This document shows positions 3,201 to 17,058 of a stretch of DNA of 17,058 nucleotides, piece by piece. Source of the stretch: Candidatus Fraserbacteria bacterium (GTDB lineage Bacteria > Bipolaricaulota > Bipolaricaulia > RBG-16-55-9). Each line of letters opens with the position of its first letter. Position 1 is the stretch's first letter. The notes under the pieces are model-generated. The model had not been told where the DNA came from, did not search any database, and saw only the letters and a list, made by a program, of their open reading frames with translations. The DNA is taken from assembly GCA_037442925.1 (NCBI GenBank), contig JBBIPG010000050.1, forward strand, positions 1-17,058. Reading direction: 5' to 3'. The position numbers and the translations under genes are program-made.

Positions 3201-3698
3201 TTAGTCCATGCGTGCCTCGCCGCGCTTGACCATCGGGTCGCGGCCACTGGCTCCTGGATGCTTTTCCGTCAACATCTCTTTCGTGTAGATCATCTCTTCG
3301 CGGGTGTATCCCGAAAGCTCATACTCATCGCTTAGCACAATGCAGTCCACAGGACAGACTTCTTCACAGTCGCCCACGAAGATGCAGCGCAGCATATTGA
3401 TCTGAAAGTCGGCTGCATAACGCGCCGTCTTTGAAATGGGCTTATCTTTCGGATTCGGGGCATCCTGGACGTGAATAGCCTGCGCGGGGCAGACGATCTC
3501 GCAGAGATGGCAGGCGATGCACCGCTCCATGCCATCCTCCCACAAGCGCAGATAGTGCCGTCCTCGGAACATCGAAGGCGGCTTACGCTTCACATCGGGG
3601 TATTGAATCGTCACCGGCTTCTCAAAGAGGTAGCTGAATGTGACGCTCATCCCCTTGAGCATGGCAGACAAGCCTTCCAGTGCGTTCTTCATAGACAT
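3201..3698 (-). CDS. nuoI: NADH-quinone oxidoreductase subunit I (ferredoxin-like)
   Basis: VTIQYP, FRGRH, ERCIACHLCEIVCP, INMLRCIFVGDCEEVCP (second motif lacks one Cys), YTKEML. Confidence 0.93.
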   Translation of the reverse strand: MSMKNALEGLSAMLKGMSVTFSYLFEKPVTIQYPDVKRKPPSMFRGRHYLRLWEDGMERCIACHLCEIVCPAQAIHVQDAPNPKDKPISKTARYAADFQINMLRCIFVGDCEEVCPVDCIVLSDEYELSGYTREEMIYTKEMLTEKHPGASGRDPMVKRGEARMD

Positions 3699-3707
3699 CG
3701 TTTCAGA

Positions 3708-4904
3708 TCACCTGTCCACGTCACCCAATACGGGGTCAACACTGGCAATGGCTACGACAGCATCCGCGATATAGCCACCTTCAACCAGGAGCGGCAGAGC
3801 TTGAGCGTTCACAAACGAGGGCGAGCGCATGCGAACTCTCAGGGGCTTATTGCTTCCGTCACTTACAACCCAGTAGCCCTTCTCTCCACGCGGGGATTCG
3901 ACCGTCACATAGGATTCGCCTGGTGGCACGAGAAATCCCCGATGTGGATGACGCCACCACACCGAACGCTCACTCTTCGAAGGAGGCTGGAGCCCTTCAG
4001 CTACAATCGGGCCCTGAGGCAGCTTGGCCAGCACTTGCTCCACGATGCGAAGACTCTGTTCCATCTCGGACATGCGCACCAGATACCGTGCATAGGCATC
4101 GCCCGCTGGCTGAGTGGGAATTTCGAATTCAAACTCTGGATAGGCGGAGTAGGGAAAGGCCCGCCGGGTATCATACGCAACGCCACAGGCCCTTAGGATC
4201 GGTCCCGTAAGCGCATAGGCATAGCATTGTTCTCTCGTGAGCACGGCAATCCCCTCGTTGCGCATGCGCCAGATGGGGTTCTTCGTCAGGAGATCGTGAT
4301 ACTCTTTCCAGTGAACTCGGAATTCGCCGACGAACTGCTTCACAGCGTCCTCGAAGCCACGAGGCAAATCCCTCATCACGCCGCCCACGCGGAAGTAACG
4401 CGGGAACATGCGAGCACCGGAGATCAGCTCAAAGAGATCTAAGATGCTCTCGCGATCACGGAAGCAGTACATGAAGACGCTCGATACGTTGAGTTCCAAG
4501 GCGCCCGTTCCCAACCAGACGAGATGGCTGGCAATCCGCGAGAGCTCACACATCATGACTCGTATGTACTGCGCCCGCTTGGGAGCCTCGATCCCCAAGA
4601 GCTTCTCCACCGCGAGAACATATCCCATCTCCTCATGCAAGCTGGAGAGATAGTCCATGCGGTCGATCAGCGGGACGACTTGATGATACGTGCGATACTC
4701 GCACTCCTTCTCGATCCCCGTGTGCAAATAGCCAATGTGAGGCTCGCAGTGAACCACACGCTCCCCATCGAGCTCCAGCACCAAGCGGAGCACCCCGTGT
4801 GTGCTGGGGTGCTGAGGCCCCAGGTTGAGCACCATCGTTTCGGTGCCCTTCTCCTGGTCCGTCTTGACCCTCTCTAGTTCGAGATCAATCTGTTCTTTCC
4901 ACAT
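3708..4904 (-). CDS. nuoD: NADH-quinone oxidoreductase subunit D (quinone-binding 49 kDa subunit)
   Basis: NLGPQHPSTHGVLRL, IGYLHTGIEK, DRMDYL, ESPRGE, terminal DPVLGDVDR. No NiFe CxxC motifs. Confidence 0.96.
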   Translation of the reverse strand: MWKEQIDLELERVKTDQEKGTETMVLNLGPQHPSTHGVLRLVLELDGERVVHCEPHIGYLHTGIEKECEYRTYHQVVPLIDRMDYLSSLHEEMGYVLAVEKLLGIEAPKRAQYIRVMMCELSRIASHLVWLGTGALELNVSSVFMYCFRDRESILDLFELISGARMFPRYFRVGGVMRDLPRGFEDAVKQFVGEFRVHWKEYHDLLTKNPIWRMRNEGIAVLTREQCYAYALTGPILRACGVAYDTRRAFPYSAYPEFEFEIPTQPAGDAYARYLVRMSEMEQSLRIVEQVLAKLPQGPIVAEGLQPPSKSERSVWWRHPHRGFLVPPGESYVTVESPRGEKGYWVVSDGSNKPLRVRMRSPSFVNAQALPLLVEGGYIADAVVAIASVDPVLGDVDR

Positions 4905-4925
4905 GGCACACGCATCTCTTCATCC

Positions 4926-5459
4926 TTATTCGTATTTCTTGGGAATGACCTCGCTCGGAAGCTTATGGGTCCTGACGCCTTTGAACTGGACAGGCTCCTC
5001 GGTGAGCGAATAATCTTTTCGTAAGGGGTGGCCGATCCATTCATCCGGCATGAGAAGCCTCTTCAGATGGGGATGTCCCTCAAATCGAATCCCGTAGAAG
5101 TCATAGAGCTCGCGTTCAAACCAGTTGGCTGACGGCCAGAGTCTTGTCGCCGAAGGGAGCAGAGGGTTCTCGCGCTCCAGTTTCACTTTGATCATCAGCT
5201 TGACCAACTGTGTGTGCGAATGCAGGAGATAGATGACATGGAAATAGGGTTCCCTCTCTAGATAATCGGCGGCCGTGAGATCGTAGAGTACATTGAACTC
5301 CAGTTGCTCTTTGGCCAGGGCCAGGATGTCGAGCAGAGCCTCTTTCTTCACCACAAGCATCCTCAGGCCAGACTTAATGACTTCTTCACCCGTGATCGCA
5401 CCGGGATAGCGCCCGCGAATCTGCGCGACGGCTTGCGTCACATGCTCTGGGTTCCCCAA
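4926..5459 (-). CDS. nuoC: NADH-quinone oxidoreductase subunit C
   Basis: DLTAADY, WPSANWFERELYDFYGIRFEGHPHLKRLLMPDEWIGHPLRKDY. Start set at TTG 5459 (SD GGAGAGGA upstream); the ORF-track GTG at 5498 abuts the predicted -10 box. Confidence 0.92.
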   Translation of the reverse strand: MGNPEHVTQAVAQIRGRYPGAITGEEVIKSGLRMLVVKKEALLDILALAKEQLEFNVLYDLTAADYLEREPYFHVIYLLHSHTQLVKLMIKVKLERENPLLPSATRLWPSANWFERELYDFYGIRFEGHPHLKRLLMPDEWIGHPLRKDYSLTEEPVQFKGVRTHKLPSEVIPKKYE

Positions 5460-5498
5460 GCTTCTTCCTCTCCGCGCATTCCATGAAAAGTTGCCCAC

Positions 5499-8418: not shown

Positions 8419-9312
8419 ATGGGAACGCTCATTGACGGGAAGAAGATAGCCCAAGGAATTCGCGAAGAACTCAAAATCGAAGTGGACCGACTCCGACAAG
8501 AGCATGGGATCGTGCCTGGGCTGGCAGCTGTGTTGGTCGGCGATAACCCTGCTTCCAAAGTCTACGTGAATATGAAGGCGAAAGCCTGTGGTGAGACCGG
8601 AATCTTCTCAGAGAAGATTCTCTTGCCCAAAGATACACCTCAGGATGCTCTTATCGCGACCATTCACGAACTGAACCGCGACGACCGGATTCACGGAATT
8701 CTCATTCAGCTACCCCTGCCGGCCCATTTGGATGAGCGTGCTGTGCTCCAAGAGGCCGACCCCCATAAGGACGTGGACGGCTTTCATCCTGTGAATCTGG
8801 GGAGACTCCTCTCGGCCAAGTACTGGCATGAGCTGCCACCGTTTGTGCCTTGCACGCCCGCCGGGATCATCAAACTCATTGAATCTACTGAGATCGAGAT
8901 CGAAGGCAAACACGCCGTCGTCGTGGGACGTAGCGTCATCGTCGGCAAACCTGTGGCGATGCTGCTGTTGGCCAAGCAGGCTACCACAGTGATTGCCCAC
9001 TCTCGCACGCAGAATCTAAGAGAACTCTGTCGCCAGGCGGATATTCTGGTTGTGGCTGCCGGCCGAACCAAACTCGTGACGGCGGATTTTATTAAACGGG
9101 GTGCGGTCGTGATCGACGTGGGGACAAACAAGATGCCCGACGGCAAGCTCGTGGGTGACGTGGATTTCGAAGCCGCCAAAGAGGTGGCAGGCTTCATTAC
9201 GCCGGTGCCTGGGGGCGTCGGCCCGATGACGATTGCCATGCTGCTCAAGAACACAGTTGAGGCAGCCAAGGGCATGGCCGCCAAGCTCGACGTTGTAGGT
9301 ACGCCCTCTTGA
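8419..9312 (+). CDS. folD: Bifunctional methylene-THF dehydrogenase/methenyl-THF cyclohydrolase
   Basis: IDGKKIA, YVNMK, GILIQLPLP, KDVDGFHP, PCTP, GRSVIVGKP, ITPVPGGVGPMT. Confidence 0.97.
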   Translation: MGTLIDGKKIAQGIREELKIEVDRLRQEHGIVPGLAAVLVGDNPASKVYVNMKAKACGETGIFSEKILLPKDTPQDALIATIHELNRDDRIHGILIQLPLPAHLDERAVLQEADPHKDVDGFHPVNLGRLLSAKYWHELPPFVPCTPAGIIKLIESTEIEIEGKHAVVVGRSVIVGKPVAMLLLAKQATTVIAHSRTQNLRELCRQADILVVAAGRTKLVTADFIKRGAVVIDVGTNKMPDGKLVGDVDFEAAKEVAGFITPVPGGVGPMTIAMLLKNTVEAAKGMAAKLDVVGTPS

Positions 9313-9361: not shown

Positions 9362-9607
9362 ATGAGCACCCGGATCAAAGAGAGGATTCTCTGGCTGGTC
9401 GTGCTCATGATTGTCGGTCTGCACATCGATCTTTGGGGCTGGAATCGAATTGAGCCTCTCCTTGCCGGTTGGATCCCTTATCATCTGTGGTATCACGGAC
9501 TCCTCACCCTGTTCGTAGCCGTCTGTATGCTCTGGCTTGCCCTGCGGATCTGGCCAGATCCGCCCGCAGATCTCATCAGCAAAGAAGACATGGAGAAGTC
9601 CTCATGA
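9362..9607 (+). CDS. Small two-TM symporter accessory protein (DUF3311/DUF997-like)
   Basis: Two hydrophobic segments around EPLLAGWIPYHLW; ATGA overlap with the downstream SSS gene, the typical arrangement for this family. Confidence 0.8.
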   Translation: MSTRIKERILWLVVLMIVGLHIDLWGWNRIEPLLAGWIPYHLWYHGLLTLFVAVCMLWLALRIWPDPPADLISKEDMEKSS

Positions 9608-11106
9608 CCGAGGCTACGGCCTCTGTGCTTGTCGTGGTGGTAGTCTATTTGATTATCTTGCTGGCCATCGGCTGGTGGAGTTACCGTCGGACGATCCCCA
9701 CGCCGGAGGACTTCTTCATGGCTGGGCGCGCCATTGGGCCCGTGGCTCTTATCTTGATCATCTACGCCACGAATATGACGGCTTTCTACATGATGGGCGT
9801 GCCGGGTTTGGCCTACCGCCAGGGAATTGGCACCTACGGCTACGTCGCGTTTGCCTCGGCCTTGGTCATCCCTGTGATGTTCTATCTCATCGGCTATCGC
9901 GCATGGCTGGCGGGTAAGCGTTATGGCTATATGACTCCGCCGGAGCTCTTCGGCGCACGATGGCAGAGTCCCACAGTCTCGTTGGTGCTATTTGTGCTCT
10001 TAGTTTTCTATACAGTTCCCTACATTGTCACATCCGTCATCGGGGCCGGGCTGGCCGTCGAGTCGCTGACGCAAGGGCAGATCTCGTATGTCTGGGCCGC
10101 TGCAGGAGCGCTCTTAATCACCATGCTCTATACGGTCTTTGGCGGGATGCGCGGGACAGCCTGGACGAGTGTCTTTCAGGGACTGGTCTTCATCGTCGTG
10201 GGACTGCTCACGTTTGTGCTGATCGCTCAGGCTCTGGGAGGCTTTCAGGCAATCACCCAGCGCGTCTGGGCAGAGCGCCCCGATCTCCTGCAGCGAGAAG
10301 GGAACTTCGACCCCAAGGTCTGGTTCAGTTTCATGCTGATCGCACCGCTTGCTGTGATCGCCTTCCCTCATGTCTTTATGCGGATGCTCATCGGCAAGAG
10401 CCATCGCACGCTCAAGACTCTTACGGTTGTGTATCCCTTCCTCTTCTTGCTGACTTGGCCTCCGGTGATCTACATCGGCCTGTGGGGCAGCGTCATCTTC
10501 CCAGGGCTAGACGCCAAGAGCTCCGATGCGATTCTACCCATGATGATCTCACACTTCCTGCCAGCGGCCCTACTCGGCTTGGGCCTTGCTGCCATCTTGG
10601 CCGCCATCATGTCGACTCTGGATGCGATGCTGCTCACCTTGAGCACCATGCTGACCCGCGATATGCTGCGCCCCTTCTTTCCTGCACTGGTCGAAGAGAA
10701 AGGCCGTGAAGTAGCCTTGGCTCGTCTCTTCGGCATCCTCATCTCCGCTTTGGCACTGTGGGGAGCGCTGATCCGTCCGGACACGATCTACGCGATCGCA
10801 AGCTTCGCCTTCACGGGCTACGCCTTAACGGTTCCTGCCATGCTCGCTGGCTTGCACTGGAGGCGGAGCACAGCGACCGGGGCCCTGGCTTCCCTGATCG
10901 TACCCAACATCCTTCTGCCCTTCTACTACTTCACACCCTACCTGAATTGGAGCACCTTTGGATTTCTTCCCGTTGTACCGTTGCTGGCACTTTCCATCGC
11001 GCTTCTCATCGGCGTCTCACTCCTAACCTCCTCATCCCAGGAAGCGAGCAGCCGCTTCTTCAAACTCTATGACAAGCTGAATGGTGGGAGACAAGAAGCC
11101 CGTTAA
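9604..11106 (+). CDS. Sodium:solute symporter (SSS; PutP/PanF/MctP-like), substrate unknown
   Basis: EDFFMAGRAIGP, GVPGLAY, YTVFGGMRGTAWT, AAIMSTLD and many TM helices. Start set at ATG 9604 (SD GGAG, overlap with accessory gene) rather than 9469. Confidence 0.93.
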   Translation: MTEATASVLVVVVVYLIILLAIGWWSYRRTIPTPEDFFMAGRAIGPVALILIIYATNMTAFYMMGVPGLAYRQGIGTYGYVAFASALVIPVMFYLIGYRAWLAGKRYGYMTPPELFGARWQSPTVSLVLFVLLVFYTVPYIVTSVIGAGLAVESLTQGQISYVWAAAGALLITMLYTVFGGMRGTAWTSVFQGLVFIVVGLLTFVLIAQALGGFQAITQRVWAERPDLLQREGNFDPKVWFSFMLIAPLAVIAFPHVFMRMLIGKSHRTLKTLTVVYPFLFLLTWPPVIYIGLWGSVIFPGLDAKSSDAILPMMISHFLPAALLGLGLAAILAAIMSTLDAMLLTLSTMLTRDMLRPFFPALVEEKGREVALARLFGILISALALWGALIRPDTIYAIASFAFTGYALTVPAMLAGLHWRRSTATGALASLIVPNILLPFYYFTPYLNWSTFGFLPVVPLLALSIALLIGVSLLTSSSQEASSRFFKLYDKLNGGRQEAR

Positions 11107-11978
11107 CCGGAGTTCAGCCCGGCGGAGTCCAACACCCTGGGGACGTACCTCTCCCAGCCAAGAGGCATGAGGTGCACCCCTTGGCAGAGATCCTTGATCT
11201 CATGAATGAGGCGGGCGGCAATCTCAATGCTCTTCTTCACCCTATCTTCTGAGCGTTCCATCTCCTGGATGAGCGGCTCGGGCACGTGAACGCCGGCGAC
11301 GTTCCTGTTCATGAACCGTGCCATACCCGCTGATTTCAAAAGAATAATCCCGGCGATGACCGGGACGTTGAGGTGCTTGGCTTGGTCCATGAACGTAGCG
11401 AACTTCTCAGGTTCGTAGATCGCCTGGGTCTGGAAGAACTGGGCTCCCGCTTCGACTTTCTTCTCCATCTTGAGGAGCTGCGGCTCCAGGGGGTTCGCCC
11501 CTGGCGTCACTACCGCCCCCAGGCAGAAGTCCGGCTTCCCTTGGAGCTCCTTGCCGGCAAGATCGTAGCCTTTCCCGAGCGTTCTGGCGGTGGCCAAAAG
11601 CGAGACGGAATCGAGGTCAAAGACCGGCATGGCCTCAGGATGGTCCCCGAAGGAGACGTGATCTCCCGTAAGACAGAGCACGTTCTCCACTCCCATCACC
11701 CAGGCCGAGAGCAGATCTGACTGTAGAGCAATGCGGTTTCGATCGCGACAAGTAAGCTGAAAGATGGGCTCAATGCCTCGTTCCTTGAGAAGATGGGAGG
11801 AGACGAGTGGCCCGAGCCGCATCACCGAAGACTGCTGATCGGTGATATTGATGGCATCCACACACGAGCGCAAGAGTTCTGCGTTTTCCAACATCTCCAC
11901 GATGTCGGTTCCCTTGGGTGGACCGACTTCCGAGGTGATCACGAACTTGCCGCGGGCAAACAGCTCAGTCAGCTTCAT
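11103..11978 (-). CDS. metF: Methylenetetrahydrofolate reductase, acetogen/MetV-associated type
   Basis: SEVGPPKG, NITD, QLTCRDRNRIALQSDL, LCLTGDH, FDLDSV, KKVEAGAQFFQTQ. ATGA overlap with metV. Confidence 0.94.
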   Translation of the reverse strand: MKLTELFARGKFVITSEVGPPKGTDIVEMLENAELLRSCVDAINITDQQSSVMRLGPLVSSHLLKERGIEPIFQLTCRDRNRIALQSDLLSAWVMGVENVLCLTGDHVSFGDHPEAMPVFDLDSVSLLATARTLGKGYDLAGKELQGKPDFCLGAVVTPGANPLEPQLLKMEKKVEAGAQFFQTQAIYEPEKFATFMDQAKHLNVPVIAGIILLKSAGMARFMNRNVAGVHVPEPLIQEMERSEDRVKKSIEIAARLIHEIKDLCQGVHLMPLGWERYVPRVLDSAGLNSG

Positions 11979-12670
11979 CTCTGCACGGTCTCCTCAACTG
12001 CTTCCAAAGCCCATCGGGCGGTGGCTCTTACGCGTTTGGGCGGCTGCATCTTGGAAAAGTCTTTGAATTGGGGCGGGCTCTTCTTCAAGACATCGAGGCG
12101 GCCTTGTTGCTTGAGGCGCTTATAGATCAAGTGCCAGCCGCAGGGCCGAACCTCCGGCTCGACTTCGCACCGCCCGTCCCGCGCTCCTCCGCAGGGACCG
12201 TTGACCAAGCCTTTACTACAAGCAGTGAGCGGACAGACCCCGGCAGTTAATCCCAGAAAGCATTGGCCACACTCGAAGCAGCGCTCTACACCCGGCCATT
12301 CCCCGCGCACTCCTCCCAGCGAGATGGTATTGCAGGCCGGATAGACGGGCTTCTCCGGTAGCACCGCCGCCACAGCCTGGACTCCAATGCCGCAGGTGGC
12401 AGCTACGATGGCCTCGGCCGAACGAAGCTCTCTTTGATACACTTCCAACCCGCTCCTTACCAGAGCCTTCTGGCAGAGGAAGTCGATCACCTTCCAGCCG
12501 ACGATCTGCTTGCCCCTCTGCGCTATCTCGTCTTTCAGCTCTAAGACTTCTCGTTCCCCTCCGGTGCCCGACGCTGCCGCGCAACCATTACAGCCCAAGA
12601 GGAAGACCCTCCGTCGGCCCTCAAGCATCTTGAGTAGTTCCTCCAGCGGCTTGCGTTCAGAAAGCAGCAT
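11975..12670 (-). CDS. metV: MetV (MTHFR small Fe-S/Zn subunit; MTHFR C-terminal-like domain)
   Basis: GCNGC..GTGG, LCQ, CGIGVQ and the Cys-rich ERCFECGQC..GVCPLTACSKGLVNGPCGG..GRCEV..PCGW domain. Directly upstream of metF; SD GGAGG. Confidence 0.9.
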   Translation of the reverse strand: MLLSERKPLEELLKMLEGRRRVFLLGCNGCAAASGTGGEREVLELKDEIAQRGKQIVGWKVIDFLCQKALVRSGLEVYQRELRSAEAIVAATCGIGVQAVAAVLPEKPVYPACNTISLGGVRGEWPGVERCFECGQCFLGLTAGVCPLTACSKGLVNGPCGGARDGRCEVEPEVRPCGWHLIYKRLKQQGRLDVLKKSPPQFKDFSKMQPPKRVRATARWALEAVEETVQR

Positions 12671-12679
12671 CTCATCCTC

Positions 12680-14170
12680 CTAATGGACAGCGCAGGCCAG
12701 ACACGGATCAAAGGACCGGACGATGCGTACGATCTCGAAGGGATTTTCCTTATCTTTGCACGGGCTCCCTTCGATTGCTTGCTCGATCGGGCCGGGAACG
12801 CCGTTATTATCTCTTGGAGAGGCGTTCCATGTGGTAGGAACGACGCACTGGTAGTGTGCGATCTTCTTCCCTTCGATCCTAAGCTGGTGCAAGAGTGACC
12901 CGCGGGGAGCATCGACCAGCCCTGCGCCCCCTCCCTCCTCGGGGAGATCATATGAAGTGTAGACCGGTCCGCCCGGCTCAAGCTCGAGCACCCATTCAGC
13001 CATCGCATTGGCAATCAATGTGCAATCGAGCGCTCGTGCCAGGTGTCGCCCTAGCACGGAGAAGAGGGACTGCGGCCCGACTTCGAGTTCACCCAGGGCC
13101 CAGTCCACAAGCTCTCGAACCTTCTGGTTCCCTTGAGCATAATTCACCAGTATGCGCGCCAGCGGGCCGACTTCGTACACTTCACCGTCGTAACGCGGGG
13201 CCTTGAGCCAGGAGTAGGCTCCCTCCTTGCCCCAGTCAGGCTTGGTTTCGCCTTCTTTGGGATGGCGGGGGTCTTTGGACGAGGAATACCAGGAGTGGCG
13301 GACTGATTCGGTGATCTTGGCCGGGTCAAGCTCCCCAGCGTTTAGATCCATAGAGGTCGTGCCTGCCGAGAAGAACTTCCCGTTTTCTTGAGGGAAGCCG
13401 CCGTATGCCAAGAGATTCCCGCATCCTTTGCCGATTTCCAAATAATCAGGGTAACTTTGGGCGATCTGTAAGACATCGGGGACATAGACGTTATCGATGA
13501 AGCGGCGGATCTCATTGAGCCGCCACAGGAAGGAAACTATGAGATCCACCGTCGGGACACATGTGACCCCGCCGGGGACGATGCCCACGTTGTGGGGCAC
13601 CTTGCCGCCAAAGATCGCCAGCATCTCGTGAGCTTTGCGGCGTAAGTCAAACGCTTGCAGATAATGAGCTGCTGCCTCTTGGGCTGCTTTCTTTGGGAGG
13701 CGATAATCTCCCTCGTACCGCGGCAGGAACGGCCCCAGTTCTCCGCGAGCGAGAAACTGTTTCACCGACTGCAAGGCCGGGTCACTACCGTTGTAATCAG
13801 CCACCGCCGTAAGATCCACATAGTCGAGTGCCGACAGGTGATAGAAGTGAAGGATATGGGATTGGATGAAGTTCGATCCCAAGATGAGATTGCGGATGAT
13901 CCGACCGTTCTTTGTGATGTTCTTATCGATGCCGAAGGCTTGATCGAGGGCGAAGGTGGAGGCGGTGGCGTGGATGATGGGGCAGACACCGCAGATCCGT
14001 TGAGTGAGCAGGGGAGCGTCGCGGGGATCGCGCCCTTGCAGAATGAGCTCGAGGCCACGGAAGAGGGTCCCGGAGCTTCTCGCTTCCTTCACGACGCCCT
14101 TCTCGACTATGACTTCAATCTTTAAGTGCCCCTCGATGCGGGTTACGGGATCGATGACGATCTTGGTCAT
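12680..14170 (-). CDS. [NiFe]-hydrogenase large subunit (group 1-like, HysA-like but Cys-type, no C-terminal extension)
   Basis: IDPVTRIEGH, L1 motif QRICGVCP, YSWLKAPRY, APRG, VVPTTWN, L2 motif FDPCLACAVH followed immediately by TAG. Confidence 0.96.
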   Translation of the reverse strand: MTKIVIDPVTRIEGHLKIEVIVEKGVVKEARSSGTLFRGLELILQGRDPRDAPLLTQRICGVCPIIHATASTFALDQAFGIDKNITKNGRIIRNLILGSNFIQSHILHFYHLSALDYVDLTAVADYNGSDPALQSVKQFLARGELGPFLPRYEGDYRLPKKAAQEAAAHYLQAFDLRRKAHEMLAIFGGKVPHNVGIVPGGVTCVPTVDLIVSFLWRLNEIRRFIDNVYVPDVLQIAQSYPDYLEIGKGCGNLLAYGGFPQENGKFFSAGTTSMDLNAGELDPAKITESVRHSWYSSSKDPRHPKEGETKPDWGKEGAYSWLKAPRYDGEVYEVGPLARILVNYAQGNQKVRELVDWALGELEVGPQSLFSVLGRHLARALDCTLIANAMAEWVLELEPGGPVYTSYDLPEEGGGAGLVDAPRGSLLHQLRIEGKKIAHYQCVVPTTWNASPRDNNGVPGPIEQAIEGSPCKDKENPFEIVRIVRSFDPCLACAVH

Positions 14171-15037
14171 CTATGCCTTCTTTCCCTCACTCAGCTCCAG
14201 CGGAGCCGTCACGGTCATCTTCTCGTAGAACGGCGAGACGAGATCCGGGAAGCCCGGCTCGACACAGCCGTTGCAGGGCGCGCTGCAGCCGATCACCCAA
14301 TTGGTCCCGCCATTCCACAGTCGCAATGGGCAGTCAGCGTGGGTGATCGGCCCCTTACAGCCCAGCTCATAGAGGCAGCCCTCGTCACTAAGACACTTAG
14401 CAAACTTCCCCTCGTCGAAATAGGCCCGCCGGGGACAGTTCTCGTGAATCAGCTTGCCGTAGAAGAGCTTAGGCCGACGATGTTCATCCAGCTCTAACCC
14501 TGAGAGGCCTTTAAGCAGAATGCTTGCGACAGTGCCCACGAACCAGTCGGGGTGCGGTGGACAGCCGGGGACATTGATCAGAGGAGTGGTGATCCCTCTT
14601 GTGGCAAAGAGATCGCCGACGCCGACGCAACCGGTCGGATTGGGCTTGGCGGCAAAGATCCCTCCGAAAGAAGCGCAGGTCCCCAGTGCGATCACGGCCT
14701 GAGCTGTCCTCCCCAGAGATTCCACCCGCTCGACCATCGGTTCCTCTCCAATGGTCCCGTAGACGCCGTTCTCCGCTGTGGGAATGGCACCCTCCACAAC
14801 CAAGAGAAAGCGCCCTTGAAGATCCTGCTCTGTTTCTTTCAGCACGTTTAGGACTGGCTCCCCGGCTCCGGCCATCACCGTCGCCTGAAACCTCAGATTG
14901 ATGTGTCGGCCGGGAAGCACCTCGTCCAATAAGAGCTCAGAAATCCGCGGACTGGCCGAGTTGAGGACTGAAACAGAGCAGCCGCTACAGGTAGCTGCCT
15001 GTAACCAGATCACCGGAATCTCTTGCGTCTTCCCCAT
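14171..15037 (-). CDS. [NiFe]-hydrogenase small subunit, no Tat signal peptide or TM anchor
   Basis: VIWLQAATCSGCS, VVEGAIP, GTCASFGG, NVPGCPPHP, IHENCPRR, GCLYELGCKGP, DCP..WNGG..PCNGC. TAG-ATG abutment with the large subunit. Confidence 0.96.
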   Translation of the reverse strand: MGKTQEIPVIWLQAATCSGCSVSVLNSASPRISELLLDEVLPGRHINLRFQATVMAGAGEPVLNVLKETEQDLQGRFLLVVEGAIPTAENGVYGTIGEEPMVERVESLGRTAQAVIALGTCASFGGIFAAKPNPTGCVGVGDLFATRGITTPLINVPGCPPHPDWFVGTVASILLKGLSGLELDEHRRPKLFYGKLIHENCPRRAYFDEGKFAKCLSDEGCLYELGCKGPITHADCPLRLWNGGTNWVIGCSAPCNGCVEPGFPDLVSPFYEKMTVTAPLELSEGKKA

Positions 15038-15069
15038 CTTCAGATTCCCCCTACGATGGGTACGCTCTG

Positions 15070-15087
15070 CGAGTATCCCGAGTATCC
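15070..15087. repeat. Tandem 9-bp direct repeat CGAGTATCC x2
   Basis: CGAGTATCC at 15070-15078 and 15079-15087. Confidence 0.7.
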
Positions 15088-15112
15088 TAGGACGATCAGA
15101 GCAGATGGTCTA
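15084..15112 (-). promoter_or_regulatory. Possible internal sigma70 promoter upstream of the hydrogenase small subunit
   Basis: Minus strand TAGACC (15112-15107), 17-bp spacer, TAGGAT (15089-15084), in the only sizeable gap (15038-15138) of the cluster. Confidence 0.4.
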
Positions 15113-15138
15113 TGATCTTGAGCAGAACAAGCCCTGAC

Positions 15139-15531
15139 TTAGATCATTTTCAGTCGCTTCTCCACCCGCTTGAGCAGCTCCTCAGGGGTCACGGGCTTAT
15201 CGATGTAGTCCTCGGCTTCGAGTTTCAGCCCTTGAGTCACAGAGAGTGTGACCTCGCCCCATTTCTCCGCGAGGCTCGTTAGAATGATCACCGGGATCTT
15301 GGCAAGTTGGGGATCGGATTTGATCTCCTCACAGACCCGAAAGCCGTCCTGATGGGGCATGATGATGTCCAAGATCACCAGATCGGGCCTTTCGCTTCTG
15401 ACTTTGGCCAGCCCTTCTTTGCCGTTGTAGGCAACCGATACTTGATATTTCTTGCTCTCTAAGACGATTTTGGTGGCCTCGACGAAATCGGGATCATCGT
15501 CGATGATGAGAATCCTGGGCTTGCGCTCCAT
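15139..15531 (-). CDS. Stand-alone response-regulator receiver domain (CheY-like)
   Basis: ILIIDDD, phosphoacceptor PDLVILDIIMP, IILTS, DYIDKP. No output domain. Confidence 0.94.
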   Translation of the reverse strand: MERKPRILIIDDDPDFVEATKIVLESKKYQVSVAYNGKEGLAKVRSERPDLVILDIIMPHQDGFRVCEEIKSDPQLAKIPVIILTSLAEKWGEVTLSVTQGLKLEAEDYIDKPVTPEELLKRVEKRLKMI

Positions 15532-15945
15532 TTAGCCTCCTTTCCTTCCCTTGGCCAAGAGCTTCTCCACCCGATGGAGGAGATCTGGGGGGGCAATCGG
15601 CTTCTCCACGTAATCATCCACGTCCATCTCCAAGCCTGTCTCCAGCTCGTAGCGGCGGCGGCTGGCCTCCTCGCGCACAGCGGTCAAGATCAAGATGGGG
15701 ATATCCGCGTGCTTGGCATATCTTGGGTCCTCTTTTAAGGCCTTGATGACGCCAAAGCCGTCGAGTCTTGGCATGAGCAAATCCAAGACGATCAGATCCG
15801 GTGGGTCCTTCTTGATTTGCTCTAAACACTCGATCCCGTCTTTGGCAGTCGCTACCTGATACGCTTGGCTCTCTAGAATGGTGGTCATCGACACCCTGAG
15901 GTCTGGATCGTCGTCTACCAGCAAAATTTTCGCCTCTTTCTTCAT
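15532..15945 (-). CDS. Stand-alone response-regulator receiver domain (CheY-like)
   Basis: ILLVDDD, PDLIVLDLLMP, LILTA, DYVEKP. Start set at ATG 15945 (SD GAGGAGG); the ORF-track GTG at 15960 overlaps that SD. Confidence 0.94.
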   Translation of the reverse strand: MKKEAKILLVDDDPDLRVSMTTILESQAYQVATAKDGIECLEQIKKDPPDLIVLDLLMPRLDGFGVIKALKEDPRYAKHADIPILILTAVREEASRRRYELETGLEMDVDDYVEKPIAPPDLLHRVEKLLAKGRKGG

Positions 15946-15966
15946 CTTCAGCCTCCTCACTATATG

Positions 15967-16884
15967 CTATAACAACGGCCTGGGCAGTAAGTTTGCCCTC
16001 CGCAAGATTTCGGGTACGGCCTCCTCCCAGCCGACAGCCATGATGTGGATCCCGTGGACGCCGGGGATCTCTAGGAGCTGCGCGATGATCTCAAGGCAAA
16101 TCCTGATCCCCTCCTCCTTGGCATCCTTGGCGTCCTCCATTCGGGTTACAATCTCGTTGGGGACGACCACGCCGGCGACGTAATCCCGCATGTAGCGGGC
16201 CATACCGGCTGACTTGGGGGGGATGACCCCGGCTAAGATATGGACCTGCTTATCTAGCCCTCGCTCTACAACCATCTCCATGAACTTCTTGAAGCGCGAC
16301 ACATCGAAGACCGCCTGGGTCTGGATGAAGTCGACCCCAGACTGGACCTTCTTGGCCAATCGGATCACTCGAAACTCGAAGGGCTCGGCGAAGGGGTTCT
16401 CCGCCGCACCGATGAACAGCGGTACCTCACCTTGGATCTCCTTGCCCGAGAGGAGTTTTCTATCGTCCCGCATCTGCTTGAGCGTCTGGATCAGCTGAAT
16501 GGAATCTAAGTCCCAGACGCCCTTGGCCTGGGGGTGATCGCCGAGTCGCTGGTGGTCGCCGCTTAGACAGAGAACGTTTTGAATCCCCAGAGCGACTGCC
16601 CCCAATATGTCGCTCTGGATGGCTAATCTATTGCGATCGCGGGTGGTGATCTGCAGCACCGGCTCGATCCCCATCTGTTTCAAGATGACGCAGGAAGGGA
16701 AGCTACCCATGCGCACGATTGCCGTCTGATTGTCCGTCACGTTGACCGCATCGCAATGGTTTCTTAAAAGCTCGCCCTTACTCTCGATCACCCGACGGGT
16801 CGTCCCCCGAGGCGGACCAAGCTCCGCCGTGACAGCAAACTTGCCCTGATTGAGGATCTTTTCCAGATTGCTTCCAGCCTTCAT
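15967..16884 (-). CDS. metF: Methylenetetrahydrofolate reductase, second paralog (acetogen type)
   Basis: [70 protein letters not shown]. Confidence 0.94.
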
Positions 16885-17058
16885 CTCATCGCTCCTCCCT
16901 TGGGCAGAGTGAACGTGAATTTGCAGCCCTTCCCCGTCTTAGGATCTGGGCTTTCGGCCCAGATCCGCCCGCCATGGGCCTCGACGATCTTCTTGGCGAT
17001 CGCCAGTCCCAGCCCAGCACCCTTGGTCTCCACACTCTTACCACGATAGAACTCCTCG
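16881..17058 (-). CDS. Sensor histidine kinase, C-terminal HATPase_c fragment (partial, continues beyond window)
   Basis: Own translation (not in ORF track): [58 protein letters not shown], showing the F box, G2 box GxGLGL, HGG and FTFTLP. ATGA overlap with metF. Confidence 0.92.
16942..16966. repeat. Perfect 10-bp inverted repeat inside the kinase gene
   Basis: GGATCTGGGC-TTTCG-GCCCAGATCC. Confidence 0.75.

Follow-up and report, generated by a model that had tools for sequence, protein, structure and literature searches.

The window analysed here is a stretch of 17,058 nt that makes up an entire contig (C50, JBBIPG010000050.1) of a Candidatus Fraserbacteria genome (phylum Bipolaricaulota). 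Its minus strand carries a block in which the genes of a [NiFe]-hydrogenase are followed by metV and metF, the genes of a MetVF-type methylene-tetrahydrofolate (methylene-THF) reductase (MTHFR). The four predicted core products are a group 1a-like small subunit without a twin-arginine translocation (Tat) leader, a large subunit, MetV and MetF. The features, with the evidence for each in brackets, were:

14171..15037, minus strand: [NiFe]-hydrogenase small subunit, group 1a-like, 288 aa, core (Pfam, NCBIfam and PDB matches, alignment)
12680..14170, minus strand: [NiFe]-hydrogenase large subunit, 496 aa, core (RICGVCP and DPCLACAVH motifs, NF033181)
11975..12670, minus strand: MetV, hydrogenase-linked clade, 231 aa, core (PF12225, NGPCGG, W125)
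11103..11978, minus strand: MetF, flavoprotein subunit of methylene-THF reductase, 291 aa, core (Pfam MTHFR, PF02219)
15967..16884, minus strand: second MetF, 305 aa, kinase-linked type, accessory (Pfam MTHFR)
16881..17058, minus strand: 3' end of a histidine kinase gene, accessory (complete gene at C16:15-1877)
15532..15960, minus strand: stand-alone receiver-domain protein without output domain, accessory (Response_reg)
15139..15531, minus strand: second stand-alone receiver-domain protein, accessory (Response_reg)
15038..15138, minus strand: 101-nt gap 5' of the small subunit (sequence inspection)
8419..9312, plus strand: folD, left native flank of the slot (Pfam)

A preliminary description of this sequence had given the order of 11103..17058 as histidine kinase, metF, two receiver genes, small subunit, large subunit, metV and metF. 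This order, all on the minus strand, was borne out, as were the spacings (4-nt overlaps, gaps of 0–21 nt and a single 101-nt gap), the 9 nt between the large-subunit stop and the metV start, and the absence from the window of cytochrome b, diaphorase, Hdr/MvhD and RnfC2 genes. In detail, the kinase gene and the second metF overlapped by 4 nt, the following gaps were 6 (21 from the ATG start), 0, 101, 0 and 9 nt, and metV and metF overlapped by 4 nt. Pfam searches with the block proteins returned MTHFR twice, PF12225 (MetV), NiFeSe_Hases, NiFe_hyd_SSU_C together with Oxidored_q6, and Response_reg twice. The 101-nt gap contained neither an in-frame start codon for a leader nor a sigma-70 consensus promoter, and a promoter and terminator scan gave results at chance level.

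The large subunit contained both Ni-binding CxxC motifs (RICGVCP and DPCLACAVH) and scored 703 bits against NCBIfam NF033181 (cut-off 600). The best PDB matches of both subunits were group 1 enzymes of Desulfovibrio and Desulfomicrobium (1CC1, 1H2R, 5JSU; E ~1e-128 and ~1e-73), and the Bipolaricaulia hydrogenase beside metVF is assigned to group 1a in PMC11287216. The [NiFeSe] HysAB models fell below their cut-offs (NF045518, 546 < 780; NF045520, 309 < 470); the ligand site carried Cys instead of selenocysteine, and ARAGORN listed no tRNA-Sec. The NiFe and Fe-S ligands were those of the periplasmic group 1a/1b [NiFeSe]/[NiFe] hydrogenases: in the small subunit, C17, C20, C121 and C159 occupied the proximal, C236, C255 and C258 the medial, and H198, C201, C221 and C227 the distal cluster positions, with V248 where the NiFeSe enzymes have a medial Cys. 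Unlike the periplasmic enzymes, the window hydrogenase lacked a Tat leader, selenocysteine, a cytochrome partner and a C-terminal extension of the large subunit, and had Val at the medial Cys/Pro position. The first start codon after the upstream stop lay only 16 residues before the first Cys of the small subunit, while the Tat-bearing relatives aligned with it did have twin-arginine leaders. Since the source genome encodes TatC, the loss of the leader was not due to a missing Tat pathway. The small subunit had no hydrophobic C-terminal anchor. Residues 202–218 near the distal cluster were more basic in Tat-less small subunits (mean charge +1.7 vs -0.4), but with overlapping ranges and related rows this amounts to no more than a hint. 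Residue 248 was Cys in 36/53 and Val in 15/53 members of the clade, with Pro or Ala in some loci of the same phylum; in the window, Val248 is accompanied by a Cys three residues further on. The type of Fe-S cluster at the medial position may differ between subclades.

The large subunit stopped at DPCLACAVH, without the C-terminal maturation extension present in five aligned relatives. A broken large subunit was considered and rejected, because extension-less copies recurred in four Tat-less genome loci, 5/49 metagenome loci and 27/40 loci of the same phylum. Many of these 27 (L275–L301) ended in CAVQ or CAIQ rather than the usual terminal His, and hycI was found in none of them within the fetched stretch. 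Contigs from a sequencing run (X1, possibly the same source DNA) spanned 10900–16967 and had no difference listed at the stop of the large subunit; two further runs (X2 and X3) gave short pieces only, no RNA run was listed as containing the sequence, and none of this was used as evidence. The small-subunit, large-subunit and metV genes lie in the same frame, with TAG as the stop codon of the first two, but a read-through fusion was rejected in favour of chance, because no tRNA with a CUA anticodon was listed and the spacing varies in relatives.

MetV showed 12 conserved Cys columns, the NGPCGG motif and a Trp (W125, in GxWxxxERC) that proved to be a signature of its clade. Its gene (PF12225) lay directly 5' of metF (PF02219), the MetVF-type arrangement, and the overlap of metF with a preceding gene for an NGPCGG-bearing MetV is shared with the 2S type (Clostridium ljungdahlii, Thermoanaerobacter kivui), the 3S type (MetVF-RnfC2, Acetobacterium woodii) and the NuoEFG-linked X-type. 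The donor genes that mark the other types were absent from its side. Neither the window nor contig C16, which joins it, had hdrABC and mvhD beside metVF (6S/Hdr type); no rnfC2 adjoined metVF (3S), the sole RnfC over the cut-off belonging to an rnf-like operon on contig C17; and nuoEFG homologues were not found 5' of metVF (X-type), nuoEF-fdhA being located on contig C2, apart from metVF. By sequence or profile search MetV had no relative in the PDB, its ESM Atlas matches were PF12225 clusters only, and comparison with small-subunit profiles gave no relationship (probability 1.5%). The two MetF proteins of the window were 42% identical.

The association of the hydrogenase with metV was examined in species genomes with a three-sequence alignment as the query; the best 80 of 599 confirmed loci were analysed, and more exist. 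A Tat leader was scored by an RR or RK pattern, so that L133, L148 and L149, with leaders of 40–50 residues containing RK, counted as Tat-bearing. metV was present in 47 of the 52 Tat-less loci, in 42 of these within 1.2 kb 3' of the large subunit, and all five Tat-less loci without it were cut by contig ends inside the large subunit. None of the 25 Tat-bearing loci had metV, with a fetched flank of at least 1.3 kb downstream in all of them. Three loci were not classified for Tat: L076 was cut, L141 had metV and L150 did not. The preliminary description had proposed a search for conserved synteny, and the order small-large-(hycI)-metV-metF was indeed kept across several phyla. By their record titles, which are submitters' labels, the module loci belonged to Bipolaricaulia/Fraserbacteria, Anaerolineae, Dehalococcoidia, Planctomycetota, Actinomycetota, Spirochaetota and Desulfotignum, with single loci labelled Thermotogae and Vermiphilus, and pairwise identity among the compared loci went down to 44%. 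In the source phylum, 57/184 genomes matched the small-subunit profile, and all 40 loci fetched were Tat-less with metV; a few of these were shared with the other locus sets. In the large-subunit tree a single branch set the Tat-less rows apart from the others (support 91; in a second tree 93.8 for 53/82 rows; not starred). The neighbours of the two kinds of locus also differed. Among open reading frames (ORFs) of 90–520 aa within 0.7 kb upstream or 1.5–3.3 kb downstream, a cytochrome b, c or NrfD gene was found in 12/25 Tat-bearing loci and in none of the 41 unassigned same-strand neighbours of the Tat-less loci (and two cut ones). Hydrophobic C-terminal tails occurred in 0/53 Tat-less vs 11/25 Tat-bearing sequences.

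Viewed from MetV, the same association appeared. The hydrogenase-linked MetVs grouped in a single clade (48/61 rows, support 89), to which neither the mvhD-linked nor the Fdh/NuoEF-linked copies belonged, and the folD-linked MetVs likewise belong to a different clade. A metagenome scan was then run with an alignment of linked MetVs, and the best 80 of 596 loci were examined; since this query favours the clade, the scan tests specificity and not frequency. Inside the linked clade fell 63 of the 80 loci (FastTree support 99). Hydrogenase genes were upstream in 53 of these and hycI directly upstream in two more; six, among them L178, had too little upstream DNA, two of which look by eye as if they begin in a hycI tail, and the remaining two (L212 and L223) were RnfC-linked. 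None of the 17 loci outside the clade had a hydrogenase. Of 36 small subunits in the metagenome loci, 29 were scorable, and all 29 were Tat-less. W125 was present in 109/111 clade rows and in 0/30 rows outside at the same column; in mvhD-linked MetVs a Trp stands two columns further on. MetV pairwise identity tracked that of the large subunit better than MetF identity did (Spearman 0.70 vs 0.29; 42 loci, uncorrected for shared descent), and several Dehalococcoidia loci had kept the linked MetV paired with the other MetF type.

The chromosomal position of the block was informative as well. The end of the window overlapped the start of contig C16 (192 nt at 96.4%), which carries the complete kinase gene and, divergently, a second metV (C16:1996-2646) and fhs. 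This is the upstream sequence in which, according to the preliminary description, a conventional donor should be sought, and it held no hdr, mvhD or rnfC2. MvhD (PF02662) had no match anywhere in the source genome (94% complete), which does have an acetyl-CoA synthase/CO dehydrogenase cluster, Fhs, FolD, nuoEF-fdhA and hyp genes. By motif it encodes only two NiFe large subunits, the window copy and one of group 3b type, besides a HyfG-like protein without Ni-binding motifs. In a genome of the same genus (G001), the interval between folD and fhs contains hdrC-hdrB-hdrA-mvhD-metV-metF; its folD is 86% identical to that of the window and its fhs 90% identical to that of C16. The collinearity of both flanks with C50 and C16 also supports the contig join. 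In the source genome the same interval is occupied by a symporter gene and the hydrogenase/MetVF block. The block thus stands in the slot of a known donor, since G001 carries its Hdr/MvhD donor between the same flanking genes, and the suggestion that the hydrogenase takes the place of known donor modules held in this literal, positional sense. The block genes were 69–84% identical to those of a locus from another family (L072), whose folD and fhs were only 67% and 51% identical, whereas the MetV and MetF of G001 were 44% and 59% identical to the closest copies of the source genome. The hydrogenase was found in none of eight other genomes of the same family (completeness 80–90%). From these identities we infer that the block arrived sideways and probably replaced a Moorella-type donor. 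The GC content at third codon positions of the block (0.68–0.76, vs a genome mean of 0.65, sd 0.056) is not decisive as a sign of transfer. Between folD and the block (9362–11106), the window also has a small membrane ORF and a sodium:solute symporter gene, both absent from the matching slot of G001; the end of the symporter gene overlaps the metF stop (11103) by 4 nt.

Taken together, we consider it fairly probable (roughly 65%) that the four core genes encode a soluble, cytoplasmic H2:methylene-THF oxidoreductase that reduces methylene-THF to methyl-THF. H2 would be split at the NiFe site, and the electrons would pass along the three Fe-S clusters of the small subunit to the distal cluster, from there to the Fe-S clusters of a dedicated MetV acting as a donor-specific adaptor, and finally to the flavin of MetF. 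In such a complex MetV would stand in for the cytochrome b/c or NrfD partners of the exported relatives, and the hydrogenase would stand in for the HdrABC-MvhD, RnfC2 or NuoEFG of the known MetVF types. As judged from sequence, H2 likely drives the methylene-THF step of the acetyl-CoA carbon-fixation pathway directly, in this bacterium as in numerous uncultured anaerobes from several phyla. With E0' values of -414 mV for H2 and -200 mV for methylene-THF (as given in PMC9586279 and PMC9430772), direct coupling was calculated to yield about -41 kJ/mol under standard conditions, with equilibrium at ~0.006 Pa H2, vs 66 Pa for NAD+ at its standard potential. The reaction itself would conserve no energy, but it would leave NADH and ferredoxin free for other steps of the Wood-Ljungdahl pathway and make H2 usable at levels too low for NAD+ reduction.

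Among the closest known systems are the 6S/Hdr-type MTHFRs (Moorella thermoacetica, Sporomusa ovata and type I Acetothermia, the last as described in PMC9586279), in which the MetVF core is likewise encoded alongside a dedicated redox module; unlike these, the window block has no hdr/mvhD, whose chromosomal slot it fills. Membranes of S. ovata reduce methylene-THF with H2 via exported, cytochrome b-anchored hydrogenases, according to the relevant section of PMC9430772. The passage of PMC8515935 that sets out five MTHFR groups assigns a catalytic hydrogenase partner to none of them, and in T. phaeum, according to PMC6895022, the "hydrogenase" next to metVF is a subunit of the MvhD type. The label "candidate new system" of the preliminary description needs qualification. 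The synteny is real and conserved, but the adjacency and the donor hypothesis were already in print: one sentence of PMC11287216 states that a group 1a HysAB adjoins MetVF in two Ca. Bipolaricaulia operational taxonomic units and may supply the electrons for methylene-THF reduction. Section 16 of that paper, where it appears, names no missing Tat leader, dedicated MetV clade, spread beyond the phylum or replacement of Hdr/MvhD. No biochemical study of such a hydrogenase-MetVF enzyme was found in the open-access literature. The module is thus a new putative donor type of the known MetVF-type methylene-THF reductase, proposed once in passing. The window itself adds two things: its block has been exchanged in place with the Hdr/MvhD cassette of a congener, and the two-component genes can be set apart from the core. 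The hydrogen-dependent CO2 reductase (HDCR) of acetogens is a soluble [FeFe]-hydrogenase wired through Fe-S subunits to a formate dehydrogenase, with no diffusible cofactor, and works near equilibrium. The proposed enzyme is not homologous to it but would resemble it in that Fe-S subunits would connect a soluble hydrogenase to a C1 reductase. At somewhat better than even odds, the whole would be a widespread, four-subunit, HDCR-like, hard-wired H2-dependent methylene-THF reductase that arose from a periplasmic group 1a hydrogenase retargeted to the cytoplasm, with MetV paralogues serving as donor-specific plugs (for a hydrogenase, MvhD/Hdr, NuoEF/Fdh or RnfC2) and donor cassettes being swapped in place between close relatives, such as the source genome and G001.

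Several observations weigh against direct coupling by a dedicated enzyme. If the two enzymes are coupled directly, the steepest energy drop in the pathway is lost, a high price for an acetogen. Because the Tat-less large subunits all lie on one side of one branch, the correlation of leader loss with metV probably reflects one evolutionary event, kept over long divergence, and not many independent events. Within the linked MetV clade, L178 had no hydrogenase in 583 nt upstream and hycI after its metF, and the RnfC-linked MetVs of L212 and L223 nested on a long branch without W125. Clostridial acetogens, too, have group 1a hydrogenases without a Tat leader, and the account in PMC9431212 names no MetVF link for them. 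Most module genomes encode further MetV and MvhD (at least two MetV in 40/48, MvhD somewhere in 35/48), so in few of them is the module the sole route. On the supporting side, AcsB was present in 43/48 of these genomes. Six had a single MetV match and no MvhD match; one of the six, G077, is a single-chromosome record and has AcsB, one MetV of the linked type and no MvhD match, with the order fhs-folD-small-large-hycI-metV-metF. Other donor routes thus mostly accompany the module, which is at times the sole one visible. In L212 and L223 the arrangement is A. woodii-like and some clade residues are shared, through common ancestry or as an artefact.

A further point against a hard-wired complex is that purified MetVF of other acetogens accepts electrons from reduced ferredoxin, as reported for C. 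ljungdahlii, T. kivui and S. ovata in vitro in the relevant parts of PMC8515935, PMC8578170 and PMC9430772; a small carrier could therefore link hydrogenase and MetVF. A cytoplasmic hydrogenase would then reduce a soluble ferredoxin or flavodoxin, to be re-oxidised by a 2S-type MetVF, and the operon would serve co-expression only. The S. ovata MetVF, described as forming no stable complex with Hdr/Mvh, and small ferredoxin-like ORFs in the source genome fit such a link. We nevertheless regard it as unlikely: by calculation, a ferredoxin at -450 mV would be reduced by H2 only at very high pressure, the scanned neighbours included no conserved carrier gene, and nothing about a diffusible carrier would lead one to expect a MetV clade specific to the hydrogenase and marked by an invariant residue. 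Less probable again is that the module belongs, as an arm, to a larger assembly that conserves energy or bifurcates electrons and also includes the second MetVF, Hdr/Mvh, Rnf or some membrane complex, or that it is the sink of an H2 cycle, consuming what an ion-pumping group 4 hydrogenase releases. This would answer the objection of wasted energy, and three Anaerolineae/Chloroflexota loci (L075, L078 and L080) do have the hydrogenase inside an hdrA-mvhD-metV ... metV arrangement, followed by hdrCB in L075 and L078; the source genome, too, has an Rnf-like operon. Only 7/48 module loci contained mvhD, however, neither the source genome nor G077 had an MvhD match, and by motif the source genome shows only the two NiFe large subunits mentioned above, its HyfG-like protein lacking the Ni-binding motifs. 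That the enzyme runs backwards, so that methyl-THF oxidation yields H2 in the course of syntrophic oxidation of acetate or methyl groups, appears very improbable. Both [NiFe]-hydrogenases and MTHFR are reversible, and the pathway is known to run both ways (as described in PMC6895022), but the uncoupled reaction would need H2 below ~0.006 Pa at equal folate pools, and the module has no energy-input subunit.

The adjoining two-component genes bear on the last alternative, in which the hydrogenase would be an H2 sensor that signals via the kinase and receivers in the manner of group 2b regulatory hydrogenases. The window copy does lack a Tat leader and a C-terminal extension and adjoins a kinase and two receivers. 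Group 2b regulatory hydrogenases are, however, constantly linked to a PAS histidine kinase. The complete kinase (C16:15-1877) consists of a cyclic nucleotide (cNMP)-binding domain, hydrophobic segments, HisKA and HATPase_c, with no match to a PAS domain. A kinase with a cNMP domain was present in only 8/48 module loci, and in 11/13 kinase matches the other MetF type was directly next; the constant neighbour of the hydrogenase is metV, and its best structural matches are the group 1 enzymes named above. The sensor reading, scarcely tenable on this evidence, was rejected. Given these kinase counts, the view in the preliminary description that the two-component proteins are part of the hydrogenase-MetVF system was not supported: a second MetVF system adjoins the block, and to it belong the kinase, both receiver proteins and the second metF, with the MetV at C16:1996-2646 as the likely partner of the second MetF. 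A phoBR-like pair flanks metF in an hdrABC-mvhD-metVF cluster of marine Chloroflexi shown in PMC5736913.

The electron donor of MetVF sets the ATP balance of the Wood-Ljungdahl pathway, and the physiological donor of MetVF-type MTHFRs is called enigmatic in PMC8578170. The module names a concrete donor, H2. If direct H2-dependent reduction is correct, it would be a sixth donor type beside the five groups listed in PMC8515935, and energy models for subsurface Bipolaricaulota, Dehalococcoidia, Anaerolineae and Planctomycetota would change. Metagenomic "group 1a" assignments would then not always mean periplasmic respiratory H2 uptake, and the W125-type MetV could serve as a sequence marker for the module.

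Other observations concerned the compared loci and the rest of the genome. DUF3786 recurred 3' of metF in Dehalococcoidia-type loci (L081, L090, L093, L098 and L100), often followed by a MobA-like gene. In L150, from Desulfothermobacter acidiphilus, a related large subunit precedes mvhD, nuoF-like and fdhA-like genes, and the flank fetched for it contains no small subunit. In L034:12757-15606 (genome G010), the small subunit, the start of the large subunit and metF seem frameshifted, possibly through assembly errors. In the window itself, nuoC, nuoD and nuoI homologues formed a short run after folC (3201–5498), without the remaining nuo genes. On contig C17 (C17:20000-29000), rnfC/rnfD-like genes lay 3' of Rieske-like and cytochrome b-like ORFs, recognised by eye from translations, as an unusual Rnf-like operon. 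The acsB gene (1199 aa; L309:198-3797 = C2:49097-52696) contained an apparent intein just before the CGCFEC motif, with an Intein_splicing match below its cut-off (E 1.5e-7) and LAGLIDADG domains (LAGLIDADG_3, E 4.5e-17).

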